Virus record (IMG/VR): IMGVR_UViG_2531839432_000012
Strand: one strand, 5' to 3'
DNA length: 36,254 bases
DNA from: a virus
Lineage: Duplodnaviria > Heunggongvirae > Uroviricota > Caudoviricetes
Below are positions 1,040 through 36,254 of the stretch, in pieces (positions within the stretch are counted from its first letter, which is position 1; each line of letters begins with the position of its first letter). Under the pieces are notes generated by a model that saw only the letters and a list, made by a program, of their open reading frames with translations, searched no databases and was not told the origin of the DNA. The position numbers were made by a program, and so were the translations under genes.

Positions 1040-1064
1040 AAAGAAAAAAGGCCGCAGAGCGGCC
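1040..1064 (-). terminator. Rho-independent terminator for leftward transcripts (stem GGCCGC/GCGGCC, loop AGA, followed on the minus strand by a U-run)
   Basis: Seen in sequence: aaaagaaaaaaGGCCGCagaGCGGCC on the plus strand; lies between the end of the 1174..1728 gene and the btuC start. Confidence 0.5.
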
Positions 1065-4966: not shown

Positions 4967-5033
4967 ATAAGAAAACGTGAAAACCATCCGTATTAACGGA
5001 GGTATTCGCACACGTAAATAACGGAGATATAAA

Positions 5034-5450
5034 ATGAACGCAAAAGAAGAAGGCATTATCGACACATTAAAAAAAATATCAAAAGCGGAAGATGAAATGG
5101 CTAAAGATGCCGTGAAGCGTAGCCAACATATGGCAGCACTTCACGCACTGACCATTGCAAAAATCACCGCTGACGCAGCCAAAATTATTGAGGAACAGGG
5201 CAAAAAAATCGACACTCTTAAAACACAGTCAACAGTTGCAGCCATGAATCCGCCCAGCATTGGACGCCGCATTCACATTCTTGGTTCGGCAATAATGACG
5301 CAATACACCATTATTGCCGAACTGCACGGCAAATACCTGATAACGCCTTACCACACAAAAGAGTCAGAGCTTCTGACAAATCTCCGCCTGATAGAACTCT
5401 CTCAAGCTGTATTCATTGATGACGCGCAACGTGCCGTATTTAACGCATAG
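5034..5450 (+). CDS. Hypothetical protein (138 aa) preceded by an AT-rich ~200-bp spacer
   Basis: ORF with AGGAG-like RBS region (acggagatataaaATG). Confidence 0.55.
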   Translation: MNAKEEGIIDTLKKISKAEDEMAKDAVKRSQHMAALHALTIAKITADAAKIIEEQGKKIDTLKTQSTVAAMNPPSIGRRIHILGSAIMTQYTIIAELHGKYLITPYHTKESELLTNLRLIELSQAVFIDDAQRAVFNA

Positions 5451-6236: not shown

Positions 6237-6558
6237 GAAACCAGAGCATGCACACACAAAAAAACCGCTTGCCACGCCGCAATCAGTCAGGTTACATTTC
6301 CGCTGCACCTCATAAAACGGGTGCCGGGATTTCCACCCCGCTGACTAGCAAAGCGCACAACCGCGCCAGCGGTTTTTTTGTGCGTACCGTATCGCCACGT
6401 CTTTTTCGCACACGAATTATGGTGGGGCGTATGGGGCCGACTTCGGTCGGGCCGGGTTCTTTGCTAGCCGGTTGTGGAAACCCTGTACGTCTCACCACCC
6501 CGAGTTTTCCACCTCTGGATGGTGAGTTTTTAAAACTTACTAGCAAAGAGGCCACACC
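6237..6558 (+). other. Structured non-coding region inside the early operon with three terminator-like hairpins and ACTAGCAAAG-type repeats; candidate attenuator or small RNA
   Basis: Seen in sequence: long-range inverted repeat AAAAAAACCGCTTG (about 6259..6272) / CAGCGGTTTTTTT (about 6367..6380); GC hairpin GGCCGAC-TTCG-GTCGGGCC near 6433..6452; hairpin CTCACCA...TGGTGAG followed by TTTTT near 6502..6535. Confidence 0.3.
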
Positions 6559-10164: not shown

Positions 10165-11124
10165 ATGAAAATTTGTATCGACGACGGCTCCACCAACATC
10201 AAGCTGGCATGGACTGAGAACGGCGAACGCCGCAACGCCATCAGCCCGAACAGCTTCAAGTCGGAATGGTCTGCGCCGTTCGGTGGCACGCAGCCCGCGA
10301 ACTATATGCTTGATGGCGTGCGCTATGGTTTTGATCCGGTCAGCGATCGCTTTGTCCAGACGACCGACACGCAATACCAATACAGAGATGTGAATGTCAT
10401 TGCCATTCATCACGCGCTGGTCAAATCAGGCATCACGCCACAGGAGGTGGATGTGGTTGTCACCCTGCCACTGAGCGAGTATTTCGACACAAACGCACAG
10501 CCGGACATGGCCAACATCAACCGCAAAAAAGCGAACGTTATGCGCCCGGTGGAGTACCAGAACGGCGAAGCATTCACTATCCGTAACGTGCGGGTTATGC
10601 CTGAATCCATTCCGGCTGGCTTTAAGGCACTGGCTGACATGAGTCCGTTTGAATCCCTGCTGATTGTGGATTTGGGCGGAACCACGCTGGATGTGGCAAA
10701 GGTTCAGGGGCAACTGGCAGGTATCAGCCAGGTGTTTTGCGATCCACACGTAGGCGTTTCTCTGATGGCCGATGCCGTACTGTCGGTGATGGCCACTAAC
10801 GGTATGCGCACCAGTCACCACATCGCCAATACCATTATCGAACATCGCCATGATGAAGCCTGGCTGCGCCAGCACATCCACAATGACGCGCATTACGCCA
10901 GCCTGATGGCGGTTATTCGTGAAAAGGAAGAAACACTGAAACAACGCGTGATCCGCGCGCTGGCGGGTTTTTCGGGTTACGGTCGGGTGATGGTTGTCGG
11001 TGGCGGGGCGGAGATTGTGGCACCCGCTATCCGCGAAGCCTGCGGAGTTAATGCGACTTTCATCGCGGACGGGGTGCCACAGTTTGCTCTGGTTAATGGG
11101 CTGTACGCAATGGACAAGGAGTAA
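10165..11124 (+). CDS. parM: Actin-like segregation ATPase, ParM/StbA family
   Basis: Translation matches remembered plasmid R1 ParM over its length, including IDDGSTNIKL, VMPESIPAG, DLGGTTLD, GGGAE; good RBS. Confidence 0.85.
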   Translation: MKICIDDGSTNIKLAWTENGERRNAISPNSFKSEWSAPFGGTQPANYMLDGVRYGFDPVSDRFVQTTDTQYQYRDVNVIAIHHALVKSGITPQEVDVVVTLPLSEYFDTNAQPDMANINRKKANVMRPVEYQNGEAFTIRNVRVMPESIPAGFKALADMSPFESLLIVDLGGTTLDVAKVQGQLAGISQVFCDPHVGVSLMADAVLSVMATNGMRTSHHIANTIIEHRHDEAWLRQHIHNDAHYASLMAVIREKEETLKQRVIRALAGFSGYGRVMVVGGGAEIVAPAIREACGVNATFIADGVPQFALVNGLYAMDKE

Positions 11125-11503: not shown

Positions 11504-11836
11504 ATGCAACACATTGACAGAGAAAAAGCGCAGCGACTGATTGAGCGGATGGAAGCGCTGGCGAAAGAAGAAAATGTCAACATCCAAAAAATAGCTGAAT
11601 GTGGCCAGATAGTTCTTCGTCGTGAAAAAGACCTCAAACAACTGATGTCTGGCGAAACCAGCAAAACATGGACTTCAGGCGAGGAGACGGTTTATTGCAG
11701 TTTCTGCAATAAATCCCAGCACGAAGTCACAAAGGTGATTGCCGGACCGTCTGTTTACATCTGCAATGAGTGCGTGGATTTGTGCAATGAAATTATCAGG
11801 AAAGAAGTGACAGACAAAAAGGAAAAAAACGCATGA
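11504..11836 (+). CDS. ClpX-type C4 zinc-finger domain protein (110 aa), first gene of a five-gene coupled operon
   Basis: C-terminal half [37 protein letters not shown] closely resembles the N-terminal zinc-binding domain of ClpX; RBS GGGGGA upstream. Confidence 0.7.
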
Positions 11837-34653: not shown

Positions 34654-34847
34654 ACAACTTAGATGCATTAGCCCTGACATTTGCTAACGCGCTTACAGCA
34701 AGAATCATAACCAATCTGACAGCCTACCCGGTGTCAAAATCAGAAGAGCCTTACATTAGAATATGTTAATTTGTAGCAAACAAATTTACACACAAATGAT
34801 TACTGCTGAAATAGCCCCCATAAATGCCATGTCAAAGGATCCATGTT

Positions 34848-35513
34848 ATGAATATGCAAATTTTTATCGCACCAGCAGCCACAGTTGCTGCAGTCTGCCT
34901 TGCTGCATATTTTGCTTTACGAAATGAACGTAAAAAGAAAGCACTTGAGATTAGAACAACTCAACTAGATCGAATATCAGAGCTAGTAAACCGAGCATCT
35001 ACCAATTTGATGCAATATACAGGTACTCTTGCCTCTATACTGGAAGCGCACGCCAAAGATAATTATCTACCGAACAAAAAATTTGACATTAATGTAATTA
35101 GCAAATGGAAAGATTGCCTCGATGAGAGTGAGGTCTGGGCGATTGATATACAGCAACTAAGAACATGTCAGCACAGTCTGGAGTTTCATCGTGAAAAAGA
35201 ATGGGCTGAATGGAAAAAAATAATTCCACCATTACTTGATAAAATTAACCAATTTTTTCTCATATCTAAGCTAGGGCAACCTGTTACGTTTATAAATGGC
35301 CAAAACAAAACAGCTGATGAACTACTTGTTTTCTCAAGATATTTGAGAAAACAAACAGCAGAAATTGAATCAGTACGTCAGCTGTTACTTTCTCAAATGA
35401 GAGAGGAATTCATCGAGTTAACTAGCTTTGAACCTGTCACAATGTTTAGCTTATTTAAATCAATAAAGAAAAATGTCATGCAATTTTTCTGTATCAGTGC
35501 TCTTAAAAATTGA
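34848..35513 (+). CDS. Low-GC hypothetical protein with an N-terminal transmembrane helix and ~190-aa soluble domain; candidate accessory gene inserted between D and ogr
   Basis: ORF with RBS AAAGGA 8 nt upstream of ATG 34848; visibly AT-rich compared with flanking genes; predicted TM segment IFIAPAATVAAVCLAAYFAL; followed by a terminator. Confidence 0.6.
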   Translation: MNMQIFIAPAATVAAVCLAAYFALRNERKKKALEIRTTQLDRISELVNRASTNLMQYTGTLASILEAHAKDNYLPNKKFDINVISKWKDCLDESEVWAIDIQQLRTCQHSLEFHREKEWAEWKKIIPPLLDKINQFFLISKLGQPVTFINGQNKTADELLVFSRYLRKQTAEIESVRQLLLSQMREEFIELTSFEPVTMFSLFKSIKKNVMQFFCISALKN

Positions 35514-35528
35514 CGCTCTGTTGCAAGC

Positions 35529-35560
35529 AACCCCAGTGTTAAACTGGGGTTATTCTTGCT
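35529..35560 (+). terminator. Rho-independent terminator (AACCCCAGT-gttaa-ACTGGGGTT + ATTCTTGCT)
   Basis: Seen in sequence after the stop at 35513. Confidence 0.5.
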
Positions 35561-35662
35561 AAGAGACCTTTCTACGGCATCAGTAAACAAAACGAACTAT
35601 CAGTTGGAGTCTGAGCAAGTTCAGCCTAAACTAGCGACAGCACTACGTTAAGGGAGGTCGCT

Positions 35663-35923
35663 ATGTTCCGTTGTCCGCTTTGTGGCGCATCTGCCCGTAT
35701 CCGCACCAGTCGTCCGGAAAATGATTCAAACACCGTGCGGCAAAAGTATTACCAGTGTAACAACCTGGAATGCGGCGTATGCTTCTCAACACTGGAAGCT
35801 TTCCATAAATTCACATCGAAACACGCCTCCGGCATCCACTCTTCAGAAGGTATCCCGTGGCATGAGCTGCCAGCTTCACACAGGGGAAACAATCAGATGA
35901 GTTTGCCTTTACCTCAGAATTAA
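35663..35923 (+). CDS. ogr: Late gene transcription activator, Ogr/Delta zinc-finger family
   Basis: N-terminus MFRCPLCGASARIRTSR...YYQCNNLECGVCF matches the Ogr Cys4 pattern (CPLC...C..C); RBS AAGGGAGG; position after D. Confidence 0.8.
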   Translation: MFRCPLCGASARIRTSRPENDSNTVRQKYYQCNNLECGVCFSTLEAFHKFTSKHASGIHSSEGIPWHELPASHRGNNQMSLPLPQN

Positions 35924-35983
35924 CAGGCAGAATTGCCGGAGTAACAAAAAAACGATAGATTACGCGCGGGTGCCTTTCGGCTG

Positions 35984-36196
35984 ATGGTCGGAGGGAATAC
36001 CCGAAGGCCAGATGTGGAAAGGCCCCGGAAAACATCTCTGTTTAACCGAGGCCCTAACCGCATTACCTTGACAAGTGAAAGGTTAGCGCCTCTCCGGAAA
36101 AGGAGCAAGTGCTATGTCGCAAAAATCGCTTACGGCCATCACGTTCTGCGTGACGGCAATCCTCATCATCTGGATGTTGCACGGTTCGCTGTGTGA
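35984..36196 (+). CDS. Possible mok-like overlapping reading frame of the hok locus
   Basis: 70-aa ORF overlapping most of the hok ORF in another frame, as in hok/mok/sok loci; inference only. Confidence 0.3.
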   Translation: MVGGNTRRPDVERPRKTSLFNRGPNRITLTSERLAPLRKRSKCYVAKIAYGHHVLRDGNPHHLDVARFAV

Positions 36197-36254
36197 AATA
36201 CGGATGAGCTTCTGGGGAGCGGAGTTTGCGGCGTTCTTACAGTGTAAGCAGTAA
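36114..36254 (+). CDS. hok: Hok/Gef-family type I toxin (46 aa, MSQKSLTAITFCVTAILIIWMLHGSLCEIRMSFWGAEFAAFLQCKQ), complete with stop at the window end
   Basis: Hand-translated small ORF with RBS AAAGGAG; single TM helix followed by the conserved SLCEIR and AAF motifs of Hok-family toxins (closest to HokA from memory). Confidence 0.7.
   Translation: MSQKSLTAITFCVTAILIIWMLHGSLCEIRMSFWGAEFAAFLQCKQ

Follow-up and report, generated by a model that had tools for sequence, protein, structure and literature searches.

The closest described relatives of the locus reported here are the hok/sok-type toxin–antitoxin loci. Their toxins, the Hok family, have been catalogued by Escalera-Maurer et al. (bioRxiv 10.1101/2025.08.07.668861). 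Positions conserved in the family logo of that work are M1, C16, T18, L30, C31, E32 and E41. Genes for Hok are enriched in prophages (IMG/VR-based), and cluster 72 is a high-abundance Hok cluster. Toxicity is reported for 42 of 45 tested Hok homologues; peptide 72_1621 (cluster 72, plasmid LRP137, Table S2) belongs to the tested set and is absent from the three homologues named as non-toxic. The study covers the Hok coding sequence, with Mok, Sok and mRNA structure outside its scope.

The window, the whole stretch of 36,254 nucleotides analysed here (IMG/VR virus record IMGVR_UViG_2531839432_000012), encodes at its right end a peptide identical to 72_1621. This end is very likely the 5′ three-quarters of a type I toxin–antitoxin locus of the hok/sok type, carried as cargo by a P88-like prophage and provided with an RNA switch like that of plasmid R1. 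The element is of an already known kind: its peptide is present in RefSeq, is catalogued and has reportedly been tested for toxicity. It is unusual only in that its relatives have not retained the mok leader reading frame. Features of the locus and its surroundings are listed in Table 1.

Table 1. Features of the hok locus and its prophage context, in window coordinates.
Feature	Position	Strand	Details	Basis
attL core	1040–1064	+	AAAGAAAAAAGGCCGCAGAGCGGCC; corresponds to the ihfA terminator; sets the prophage limits	
ogr (P2-type late activator)	35663–35923	+	Directly upstream of hok; context, outside the toxin–antitoxin locus	
Candidate hok promoter	35933–35961	+	−35 TTGCCG (35933–35938), 17-nt spacer, −10 TAGATT (35956–35961)	Sequence reading
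Predicted hok mRNA 5′ end and tac element	35968–35982	+	GGGUGCCUUUCGGCU; nt 1–15 of the transcript	Rfam match start, conservation, folds
70-aa ORF overlapping the hok start	35984–36196	+	Probably not a gene; frame differs from that of hok	ORF list
Predicted Sok-like RNA	36010–36073	−	About 64 nt; 10-nt single-stranded 5′ tail UGUCAAGGUA and long hairpin; both ends approximate	Fold
ucb / anti-SD region	36014–36028	+	GUGGAAAGGCCCCGG; includes GGCCCCGG (36021–36028)	Folds, pair counts
GAGG and dcb hairpin	36048–36092	+	GAGG at 36048–36051; loop CUUGACAA (36067–36074), the predicted Sok recognition loop	Truncated fold
Candidate sok promoter	36080–36108	−	−35 TTGCTC (36108–36103), 17-nt spacer, −10 TAACCT (36085–36080); overlaps the hok SD	Sequence reading
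hok Shine-Dalgarno (SD)	36100–36105	+	AAGGAG, 8 nt 5′ of ATG	Sequence reading; nearly invariant in relatives
hok	36114–36254	+	MSQKSLTAITFCVTAILIIWMLHGSLCEIRMSFWGAEFAAFLQCKQ; 46-aa Hok/Gef membrane toxin	Pfam, PHROG, RefSeq, alignment

A 46-aa Hok/Gef ORF ending at the window edge had been claimed by the sequence-only reading, and this is borne out. The last base of the stop codon is the final base of the window. The product matches Pfam PF01848 (HOK_GEF) above the cut-off (29.9 bits, cut-off 22, E 4e-7), with residues 7–44 covering profile positions 5–42 of 42, and PHROG 251 (E 1e-22). On these matches the ORF is therefore not a chance one. The peptide aligns over its full length with HokC and HokB of E. 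coli K-12. M1, C12, T14, L26, C27, E28 and E37 fall in the columns conserved in the family (compared with HokB, HokC and Hok of R1), so that the full conserved residue set is present. Identity to HokB–E and R1 Hok is 24–33%. Scores are far below the cut-off for the NCBIfam HokA equivalog (34 bits, cut-off 89) and for the NCBIfam Hok subfamily (21.6 bits, cut-off 73), and by these model scores the Hok of the window is placed in a cluster separate from the HokA–E equivalogs. An identical protein in RefSeq (WP_000078916.1, E. coli) is annotated as Hok/Gef family protein. Neither Hok nor the neighbouring 229-aa ORF is matched by a PADLOC model. The label 'MokW-like host killing' in phage records is the family description of PHROG 251 and is not evidence of mok.

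The window is an IMG/VR prophage prediction cut at gene ends. Its edge coincides with the hok stop because the prophage call was trimmed in this way, and the hok 3′UTR (fbi, terminator) therefore lies outside it. The 3′UTR was taken from a proxy genome, that of E. coli CB9615 (L001). Over window positions 35500–36254 this genome has two differences, at 35902 and 35952, and each of them lies 5′ of the hok transcript. The 25-mer of the attL core is present as a single copy at the empty btuC–ihfA site of K-12 (L004, 1212). The attR core is found in L001 at 5017–5041, at the right junction, 262 bp past the hok stop and beyond the window. Lying between the two att cores, hok is therefore placed inside the prophage. 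The prophage is P88-like (P2-family, Peduoviridae, Xuanwuvirus) and is integrated in the btuC–ihfA interval of E. coli, at the terminator of ihfA; its hok cargo occupies the stretch from ogr to attR.

The neighbourhood of hok and ogr at the right end of the prophage, also noted in the sequence-only reading, is confirmed; the ogr product matches Pfam Ogr_Delta with 52.4 bits. Of 80 related IMG/VR contigs, 74 have ogr ahead of hok, in most cases some 194 nt 5′ of the hok ATG. The same order is present in the deposited phages P88, PhiR44_2, Chuche, Shae_phiSM and P884B11, and one Salmonella locus has the order gpU-gpD-ogr-hok-ihfA. The locus had been described as either cargo or a mark of the flanking island. 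The first alternative stands, with the att cores and the ogr–hok order in P88 and the related contigs in its favour; the second is ruled out by mapping of the att cores against the empty K-12 site. Among 5426 complete E. coli genomes, 1553 have a match to a 755-bp ogr–hok query (window 35500–36254). The ogr–hok junction is present in roughly one fifth of complete genomes of the species.

Relatives of the locus were collected in several ways. A scan of genome contigs, made from an alignment, gave only 7 loci. A first scan of viral contigs gave 80 loci, in all of which Hok was 100% identical; this biased sample was therefore left out of the arguments on selection. The scan was replaced by an exact 21-mer scan, which gave 120 loci.

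The place of hok downstream of the late-gene activator bears on a reading that uses the same parts for phage lysis and not for addiction or exclusion. Induction would lead to loss of Sok, Hok would damage the inner membrane, and progeny would be released faster, as reported for hokW-sokW. Between ogr and hok no convincing terminator is found by sequence reading or scan. Deletion of hokW-sokW reportedly halves the yield of Sp5, and the appearance of HokW after mitomycin C depends on RecA (PMC8621323). HokW, however, is another kind of Hok: it has 51 aa and, judged by the primer used to clone it, is HokC/D-like. P2-like phages, moreover, carry a holin and an endolysin of their own. A role as lysis helper is rather unlikely. 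Such a role is compatible with prophage retention or with exclusion of other phages.

Of 71 distinct relatives, 70 have the −10 box of the candidate hok promoter (TAGATT, TAGAAT or TAAATT) 6 nt 5′ of GGGTGCC; the box aligns with TATAAT of K-12 hokC. GGGTGCC is invariant across 36 aligned relatives. With the strict sigma-70 consensus, a scan called no promoter on either strand. A degenerate promoter pattern, built after both candidates were known, serves for coordinates only (2 matches, 1.4 expected). The leader matches Rfam RF01794 at 35968–36127 on the hok strand, over the full model length (48.4 bits, E 1e-9), below the gathering score of 59 bits. Relatives score 38–48 bits; K-12 hokC and hokB score 118 and 110 bits on the same hok strand. 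RF01794 is named 'sok', yet it is modelled on the hok leader strand. By these scores the leader is homologous to RF01794 and diverged. As it falls below the gathering score, the locus will be missed by Rfam-based annotation, and since IMG/VR also trims at the hok stop, automated pipelines are left with an isolated toxin ORF, cut off from its antitoxin and from the control elements at the 3′ end.

The hok-type leader elements that were looked for (tac, ucb, dcb and fbi) are all found, fbi in the proxy genome. The fbi box lies about 50–65 nt past the hok stop, just beyond the window, and is followed by the terminator (read in L001); a 3′ stem-loop and the terminator close the hok transcript (L001). 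In the predicted fold of the 408-nt full-length transcript (−177.8 kcal/mol, z −8.5), nt 1–15 are paired to GGUCGAUAAGGCACCC (fbi), and GGCCCCGG is paired with CCGAGGCC (36046–36053). In the truncated fold ucb is paired with tac, and a GAGGC...GCCUC hairpin is formed. The recognition loop has an unpaired probability of 0.87 in the truncated form versus 0.28 in the full-length form. GAGGC/GCCUC is invariant in the aligned relatives. The loop itself is hypervariable, with the YUNR motif kept in 26 of 26 variants.

Both structures are supported by the alignment. The tac/fbi helix is recovered by RNAalifold (36 relatives). In the full-length structure, pairing is kept in 96.7% of cells, and two-sided changes occupy 42 cells versus 7.7 in shuffles; when the partners are slid by 1–3 columns, 34–56% of cells pair. 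Covariation in the truncated structure is similar. The structures compared in this way were derived from one of the aligned sequences, which gives them an advantage over the slid controls. The tac/fbi helix comprises 15 pairs (97% of cells paired, 4 pairs with compensatory changes), the tac/ucb helix 12 pairs (98.6% paired, 3 with compensatory changes), and the GAGGC/GCCUC helix is 99% paired. Alignment columns 10–11, in tac, covary with their partners in fbi as well as with those in ucb. On this covariation, the tac/fbi closure and the alternative tac/ucb pairing are both maintained by compensatory changes.

The start of hok is paired with the invariant codons 36–41 (RNAalifold). Predicted accessibility of its SD, for which 'GGAGC' is the prediction given for the 72_1621 peptide (bioRxiv 10.1101/2025.08.07.668861), is 0.33 in the full-length form, 0.40 in the truncated form and 0.33 in the Sok-blocked form; the differences are small. 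Pairing of the AUG with an invariant downstream segment, with low predicted SD exposure in every form, would suit a translationally silent relic, in which, without mok, the hok transcript would yield no toxin and the locus would have no current function in the prophage. A conserved mok is indeed absent, and hok loci of K-12 are often disabled, with IS150 inside the hokA leader and IS186 adjoining hokC and hokE. The window locus, in contrast, has no IS or frameshift. Promoter boxes, tac, ucb, fbi, the 3′ hairpin and the terminator are kept, with compensatory changes, in copies from E. coli, Salmonella, Klebsiella and Stx phages. Every family-conserved Hok residue is present, and the peptide is reportedly toxic when expressed. 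The gene is also retained beside ogr in most related contigs and in deposited phages such as P88. Decay into a silent relic is highly improbable.

An antisense Sok-like RNA had been expected on the minus strand at about 36000–36110. A candidate promoter and a predicted transcript within this interval agree with the expectation (Table 1). Among 75 distinct relatives, 72 share the promoter layout (−35 TTG/TTT-NNN, 17–18 nt spacer, −10 TA[AT]CCT), and its placement relative to the hok ATG is the same as in the annotated sokB, sokC and sokE of K-12. The predicted RNA folds with −26.4 kcal/mol (z −3.4), and its 5′ tail is complementary to the recognition loop. It would be about 64 nt long and begin 41 nt from the hok ATG; SokC, SokB and SokE of K-12 are 59, 57 and 60 nt long, at 44–49 nt. 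Termination after the Sok hairpin is uncertain because only 3 U residues follow it.

The sequence-only reading had also recorded an overlapping mok-like frame. The overlap with the hok start holds for the 70-aa ORF; a mok-like function is not supported by comparison with relatives. Its candidate starts are ATG 35984, GTG 36014 and TTG 36068. The frame is closed in phage P88 by an indel and a TAA. ORFs with canonical starts (ATG, GTG or TTG) were sought across the hok start with a script by which mokB, mokC and a HokA-like mok were recovered as positive controls; the comparison is made at sequence level. Of the 116 related loci, 63 lack such an ORF in every frame; among the 66 distinct sequences, 36 lack it. 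The absence extends to loci with identical or near-identical Hok, and Hok of the P88 type differs by one residue. No match for the 70-aa frame is found in Pfam, PHROGs or NCBIfam, and BLASTP gives no alignment with MokB. MokB of K-12 likewise has no NCBIfam match, and MokC matches only Hok models; the missing matches of the 70-aa frame therefore say little.

Canonical, mok-dependent control was weighed against these observations. In it the 70-aa frame would be translated, probably from TTG 36068 after GAGG, and its translation would open the hok ribosome-binding site; Sok would block initiation of mok. The frame is open in the window and overlaps the hok start. GAGG, the mok Shine-Dalgarno sequence in R1 (PMC9841398), is invariant, and a leader of the window type, with an in-frame TTG 16 nt past GAGG, occurs in 35 of 116 related loci. 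Sok is predicted to begin at about 36073, a few nt into the putative ORF, like SokB and SokC in mokB and mokC. Against this, the 63 loci without an ORF over the hok start include the P88 type, and TTG 36068 is one version of the YUNR motif of the loop (UUGA; others include UUAA, CUAA and CUAG). The spacing after GAGG is 16 nt versus 7–8 nt in mokB and mokC. The leader variants preserve pairing of the stem and not a reading frame. Dependence on mok is improbable for this locus.

Across the sequences compared, cluster 72 shows no conservation of a mok reading frame. Hok translation and Sok repression in this cluster are therefore probably independent of mok. A wider proposal is offered tentatively, its chances being a little short of even: an abundant prophage Hok cluster has dropped the mok leader ORF and kept the tac/ucb/fbi/GAGG switch, Sok acts independently of mok, and the hypervariable YUNR loops are specificity determinants against cross-talk among co-resident hok/sok copies. 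Sok could act without mok, for example, through RNase III-triggered decay or through occlusion of GAGG as a ribosome standby site. No report of mok-less hok loci was found in a full-text literature search of incomplete coverage, which does not prove novelty.

By homology with hok/sok of R1, the following course of events is proposed for the hok/sok-type locus of the window. The full-length hok mRNA would be closed and inert. Slow trimming from the 3′ end, which is assumed, would remove fbi, and tac would then capture ucb. The GAGG/dcb hairpin would form next, with the YUNR loop exposed. A short, unstable antisense RNA from the promoter at 36108–36080 would bind this loop through its 5′ tail, leading to decay of the hok mRNA or to blocked expression. 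When Sok synthesis stops, Hok would be made and inserted into the inner membrane, and the cell would be killed or lysed. The locus could serve prophage retention, help lysis on induction or exclude other phages. Should the module stabilise P2-like prophages or change their lysis, it would be relevant to prophage curing and to the behaviour of these very common lysogens. Since the cluster keeps all RNA elements of the R1 paradigm except mok, it offers a natural way to find out whether hok/sok control needs mok-coupled translation.

Among the known systems, hok/mok/sok of R1 (parB) shares with the window locus the toxin family (33% identity, SLCEIR and AAF motifs), the mRNA layout (tac/fbi closure, tac/ucb alternative, GAGG paired to ucb or dcb), the 3′ layout (protective hairpin, fbi, then terminator) and, as predicted here, a cis-antisense RNA of about 60 nt with its promoter overlapping the hok SD. 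The R1 system is located on a plasmid and has a Hok of 52 aa, whereas the window locus is located in a prophage and has a Hok of 46 aa. The window cluster differs further in the lack of a conserved mok ORF after GAGG and in a leader below the Rfam gathering threshold.

Leaders of K-12 hokB/sokB and hokC/sokC can be aligned with that of the window over the stretch that begins at the −10 box and ends at the ATG of hok. The K-12 sokB, sokC and sokE are annotated at the position equivalent to that of the predicted Sok, and hokB has an fbi-like GGCACCC at a similar distance past the stop. In K-12, mokB and mokC start 7–8 nt after GAGG, whereas cluster 72 has no conserved start there. The K-12 hok loci are chromosomal and mostly IS-flanked or IS-disrupted.

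The hokW-sokW locus of the Stx2 prophage Sp5 (Takada et al. 2021, PMC8621323) is likewise prophage-borne; it is an experimentally supported type I toxin–antitoxin locus with a proposed role in phage release. Its HokW, by size and HokC/D-like type, is ruled out as the same Hok. HokST of Salmonella, located on plasmid pCol1B9, is another Hok type and is also excluded. Stx phages carry a separate cluster-72 hok beside lom, with about 82% nucleotide identity to hok of the window.

Cluster 72, with peptide 72_1621 (bioRxiv 10.1101/2025.08.07.668861), is the closest match, its peptide being identical to Hok of the window. To the picture of this cluster, the ogr–hok–attR position, the predicted RNA switch, the candidate antisense promoter and the absence of mok are added here.

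The hok locus lies inside the prophage, between ogr and attR, since the att core AAAGAAAAAAGGCCGCAGAGCGGCC is found near the left end of the window and again 262 bp downstream of the hok stop, followed by ihfA, outside the window in the E. coli O55:H7 CB9615 locus (L001). Sequence 3' of the hok stop, absent from the window, was read from L001, which differs from window 35500-36254 at two positions only (35902 and 35952), each 5' of the hok transcript. The abrupt end at the hok stop arises because the window is a predicted IMG/VR prophage trimmed at gene boundaries. Many related UViGs end exactly there too. The boundaries are off on both sides: host btuC (1-981) is taken in, and the right end falls about 290 bp short of attR, so that the hok 3' UTR with fbi and terminator is lost. 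Phage P88 shares the ogr-hok order, as do genomes of related Peduoviridae, 74 of 80 related IMG/VR contigs and a Salmonella gpU-gpD-ogr-hok-ihfA locus (Hok 61% identical). Of 5426 complete E. coli genomes, 1553 match a 755-bp ogr-hok query, 1156 of them over at least 80% of its length. The sequence-only reading had allowed either cargo or a flanking island; hok is cargo, and the island was dropped, hok falling between the att cores. Just downstream of ihfA, the STnc540 sRNA family (RF02082) matches L001 4973-5117 (-) with 41 bits, spanning the attR core, and Salmonella L095 3295-3492 (-) with 172 bits. The prophage is inserted within or beside this ihfA 3' transcript, convergent with hok.

Features of the hok locus and the prophage ends in the window
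Feature	Position	Strand	Remarks
attL core AAAGAAAAAAGGCCGCAGAGCGGCC	1040-1064		25-mer, ihfA terminator; same 25-mer once at empty K-12 btuC-ihfA site
ogr	35663-35923	+	Pfam Ogr_Delta
Candidate hok -35 box TTGCCG		+	17 nt upstream of -10 box
Candidate hok -10 box TAGATT	35956-35961	+	6 nt before invariant GGGTGCC (35968)
70-codon ORF	35984-36196	+	other frame, overlapping hok start
GGCCCCGG	36021-36028	+	leader alignment
CCGAGGCC	36046-36053	+	leader alignment
Hairpin GAGGC...GCCUC	36048-36092	+	leader alignment
hok SD AAGGAG	36100-36105	+	leader alignment
hok ORF, 46 codons	36114-36254	+	ATG start; last 141 bases of window; product MSQKSLTAITFCVTAILIIWMLHGSLCEIRMSFWGAEFAAFLQCKQ
Candidate sok -35 TTGCTC	36108-36103	-	overlaps hok SD
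Candidate sok -10 TAACCT	36085-36080	-	17-nt spacer from -35
Predicted Sok-like RNA, ~64 nt	about 36073 to about 36010	-	10-nt free 5' tail UGUCAAGGUA and long hairpin

The 46-aa ORF is not a chance frame, since its product matches Pfam HOK_GEF (29.9 bits, cut-off 22) and PHROG 251 (E 1e-22), aligns end to end with K-12 HokC and HokB, and has all residues conserved across the 1264 Hok peptides of a recent survey's set. It shares 24-33% identity with R1 Hok and HokB-E, scores below the cut-offs of the NCBIfam HokA and Hok models, and matches no PADLOC model. The Hok/Gef ORF first seen at the window edge is real and was largely correctly interpreted, but the element is already known and catalogued. 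The identical RefSeq protein, WP_000078916.1, is annotated as Hok/Gef family protein; the phage-record label 'MokW-like host killing' is the PHROG family name. In a preprint from Escalera-Maurer et al. (bioRxiv 10.1101/2025.08.07.668861), the exact peptide is 72_1621 of a high-abundance cluster and one of 45 homologues cloned for toxicity tests, 42 of them reported toxic, with 72_1621 not among the three named exceptions. The same preprint shows, using IMG/VR, that hok is enriched in prophages and places Mok, Sok and the mRNA outside its analysis.

Leader elements were obtained by alignment with the K-12 loci and with relatives in Salmonella, Klebsiella oxytoca and Stx phages. The fbi, tac and ucb elements of the R1 paradigm were all located, fbi beyond the window end in L001, where a GC-rich hairpin is followed by AAGGCACCC, the complement of the mRNA 5' end. 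The 3' limit of AAGGCACCC is 65 nt past the hok stop, with a terminator ~20 nt further. Rfam RF01794 matches 35968-36127 (plus strand) with 48.4 bits (E 1e-9); control scores are 118 bits for K-12 hokC (L005 602-754) and 110 bits for hokB (L006 1067-1218). RF01794 models the hok leader, +1 to hok ATG, since both K-12 matches lie on the strand of hok and antisense to sokC and sokB as annotated. Its name is 'sok antitoxin', and annotations derived from it would give Sok the wrong strand and the wrong length. Standard pipelines overlook the RNA parts of the locus, through the Rfam score below threshold and IMG/VR trimming.

From homology and covariation, the locus is predicted with high confidence to encode a membrane toxin restrained by an antisense RNA in cis and an mRNA switch that depends on 3' processing. 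The full-length hok RNA (408 nt) folds at -177.8 kcal/mol (z -8.5), with nt 1-15 paired with the 3' box (tac/fbi) and GGCCCCGG paired with CCGAGGCC (ucb with the GAGG box). In the RNA cut back at its 3' side as far as the protective hairpin, tac/ucb pairing joins the 5' end to GGAAAGGCCCC, and GAGGC:GCCUC pairing leaves the loop CUUGACAA exposed (unpaired probability 0.87 trimmed versus 0.28 full-length). The tac/fbi helix is recovered by RNAalifold from 36 distinct relatives. In these, about 95-97% of cells pair in both structures versus 34-58% with partners slid 1-3 columns, a comparison favouring the tested structures because they were folded from one aligned sequence. Both-sided changes in pairs number 42 cells versus 7.7 in shuffles (full-length) and 30 versus 4.8 (trimmed). 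Tac columns 10-11 read C,G instead of U,C in Salmonella-type copies, and their partners on the fbi side (columns 357, 356) and on the ucb side (columns 51, 50) co-change. Such three-way covariation is expected from two mutually exclusive pairings and is the most telling of the covariation evidence.

A Sok-like RNA had been anticipated on the minus strand at about 36000..36110, and one is predicted there. Its promoter arrangement occurs in 72 of 75 distinct relatives, with TATCCT in three of them. The R1 sok promoter (TTGCGC-N17-TATCCT) has the same position as the candidate. The candidate scores below a strict promoter scan. The predicted RNA folds at -26.4 kcal/mol (z -3.4), its tail complements the loop that trimmed hok mRNA exposes, and just three U residues follow the hairpin. 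Among identical-Hok loci, the hairpin loops 36031-36045 (Sok body loop) and 36060-36079 (Sok-tail target) have many variants while stems and peptide are constant. Such variation would fit selection for antitoxins that discriminate between co-resident copies.

The mok-like frame proposed earlier exists as an open frame; as a conserved mok it did not hold up. In R1, mok starts 8 nt past GAGG and has to be translated for Hok to be made (PMC9841398). Positive controls of the ORF test were mokC (ATG at -57), mokB (ATG at -58) and mok of a HokA-like Superficieibacter locus. The frame is closed in P88 by a 1-nt indel and TAA, and no ATG/GTG/TTG ORF runs across the hok start in Salmonella, Klebsiella and Stx-phage copies. 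An invariant 21-mer, which leaves protein identity out of the selection, retrieved 116 IMG/VR loci. Of these, 63 (36 of 66 distinct sequences) lack such an ORF, 35 carry a TTG of the window type 16 nt past GAGG, and 18 have far-upstream starts only. The window TTG sits in a hairpin loop; this hypervariable loop is always Y-U-N-R (UUGA, UUAA, CUAA, CUAG, UUAG, CUCA, UUCA). Y-U-N-R is reportedly the U-turn motif that Franch et al. proposed in 1999 for rapid antisense recognition. Differences between leader variants keep the stem, not the reading frame. Since the ORF test mostly fails, the TTG lies within the Y-U-N-R loop and variants keep the stem, we conclude that the window frame is probably a by-product of loop sequence and mok no conserved part of the cluster. 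The hok AUG is paired with invariant codons 36-41 (RNAalifold consensus), and predicted hok SD exposure changes little between mRNA forms. Without mok, hok might be initiated directly after 3' processing, GAGG might serve as a standby site occluded by Sok, or control might act through RNase III only; a silent hok is a further option. Residual interest lies in the apparent absence of mok from a cluster retaining every other R1 control element.

Only inference bears on the biological role: a post-segregational penalty for prophage loss would be the classical expectation, and lysis help on induction may be considered by analogy with Sp5 (PMC8621323). T4 exclusion by R1 hok/sok is reported, as cited in PMC8621323.

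The prophage has further loci. IsrK (RF01394, 63.8 bits, 6305-6379, +) adjoins C4 antisense RNA (RF01695, 78.8 bits, 6415-6502, +), both above gathering score and here within a P2-like prophage. Such a pair is part of the immunity and antirepressor control of P1/P7 type. A full-length ParM is encoded at 10165-11124 (+; Pfam StbA_N and ParM_N, E 1e-82); in the related prophage of E. coli strain 165, ParM is annotated together with a 'plasmid partitioning/stability' gene. Downstream of the ParM region, a 110-aa ORF (11504-11836, +) encodes a C4 zinc finger of the ClpX type (Pfam zf-C4_ClpX, E 3e-18). A 229-aa ORF (34824-35513, +) between gpD and ogr, followed by an intrinsic terminator (35529-35551), occurs in only 8 of 80 related contigs, has nothing significant in Pfam, PHROGs, NCBIfam and PADLOC, and looks like the occupant of a variable moron slot.

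Outside P2-like phages, hok of cluster 72, the preprint's group holding the window peptide, is likewise found at the outer edge of integrated elements, in K. oxytoca (L094 1552-3141) and in Salmonella (L097 437-3141). One copy neighbours a Phd/Fic pair, before ppiD; another comes after lambdoid tail-fibre genes, with HicA/HicB near, before fieF. Two Salmonella loci, at an island edge, each have a tandem pair of cluster-72 hok copies ~490 bp apart (L099 3001-3141 and 3491-3631; L100 3001-3141 and 3495-3635); the leader hairpin sequences of the tandem copies differ.

This one prophage has equivalents of the two R1 stability loci, partition of the parA type and hok/sok of the parB type, a hint of plasmid ancestry or of an episomal phase. 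The experimentally studied hokW-sokW of prophage Sp5 differs in its toxin, HokW being 51 aa and HokC/D-like, the window Hok 46 aa. The predicted Sok-like RNA matches annotated K-12 SokB, SokC and SokE in length and position, and the hok RNA read from the window and L001 has the same architecture as R1 hok mRNA (summarised in PMC9841398).
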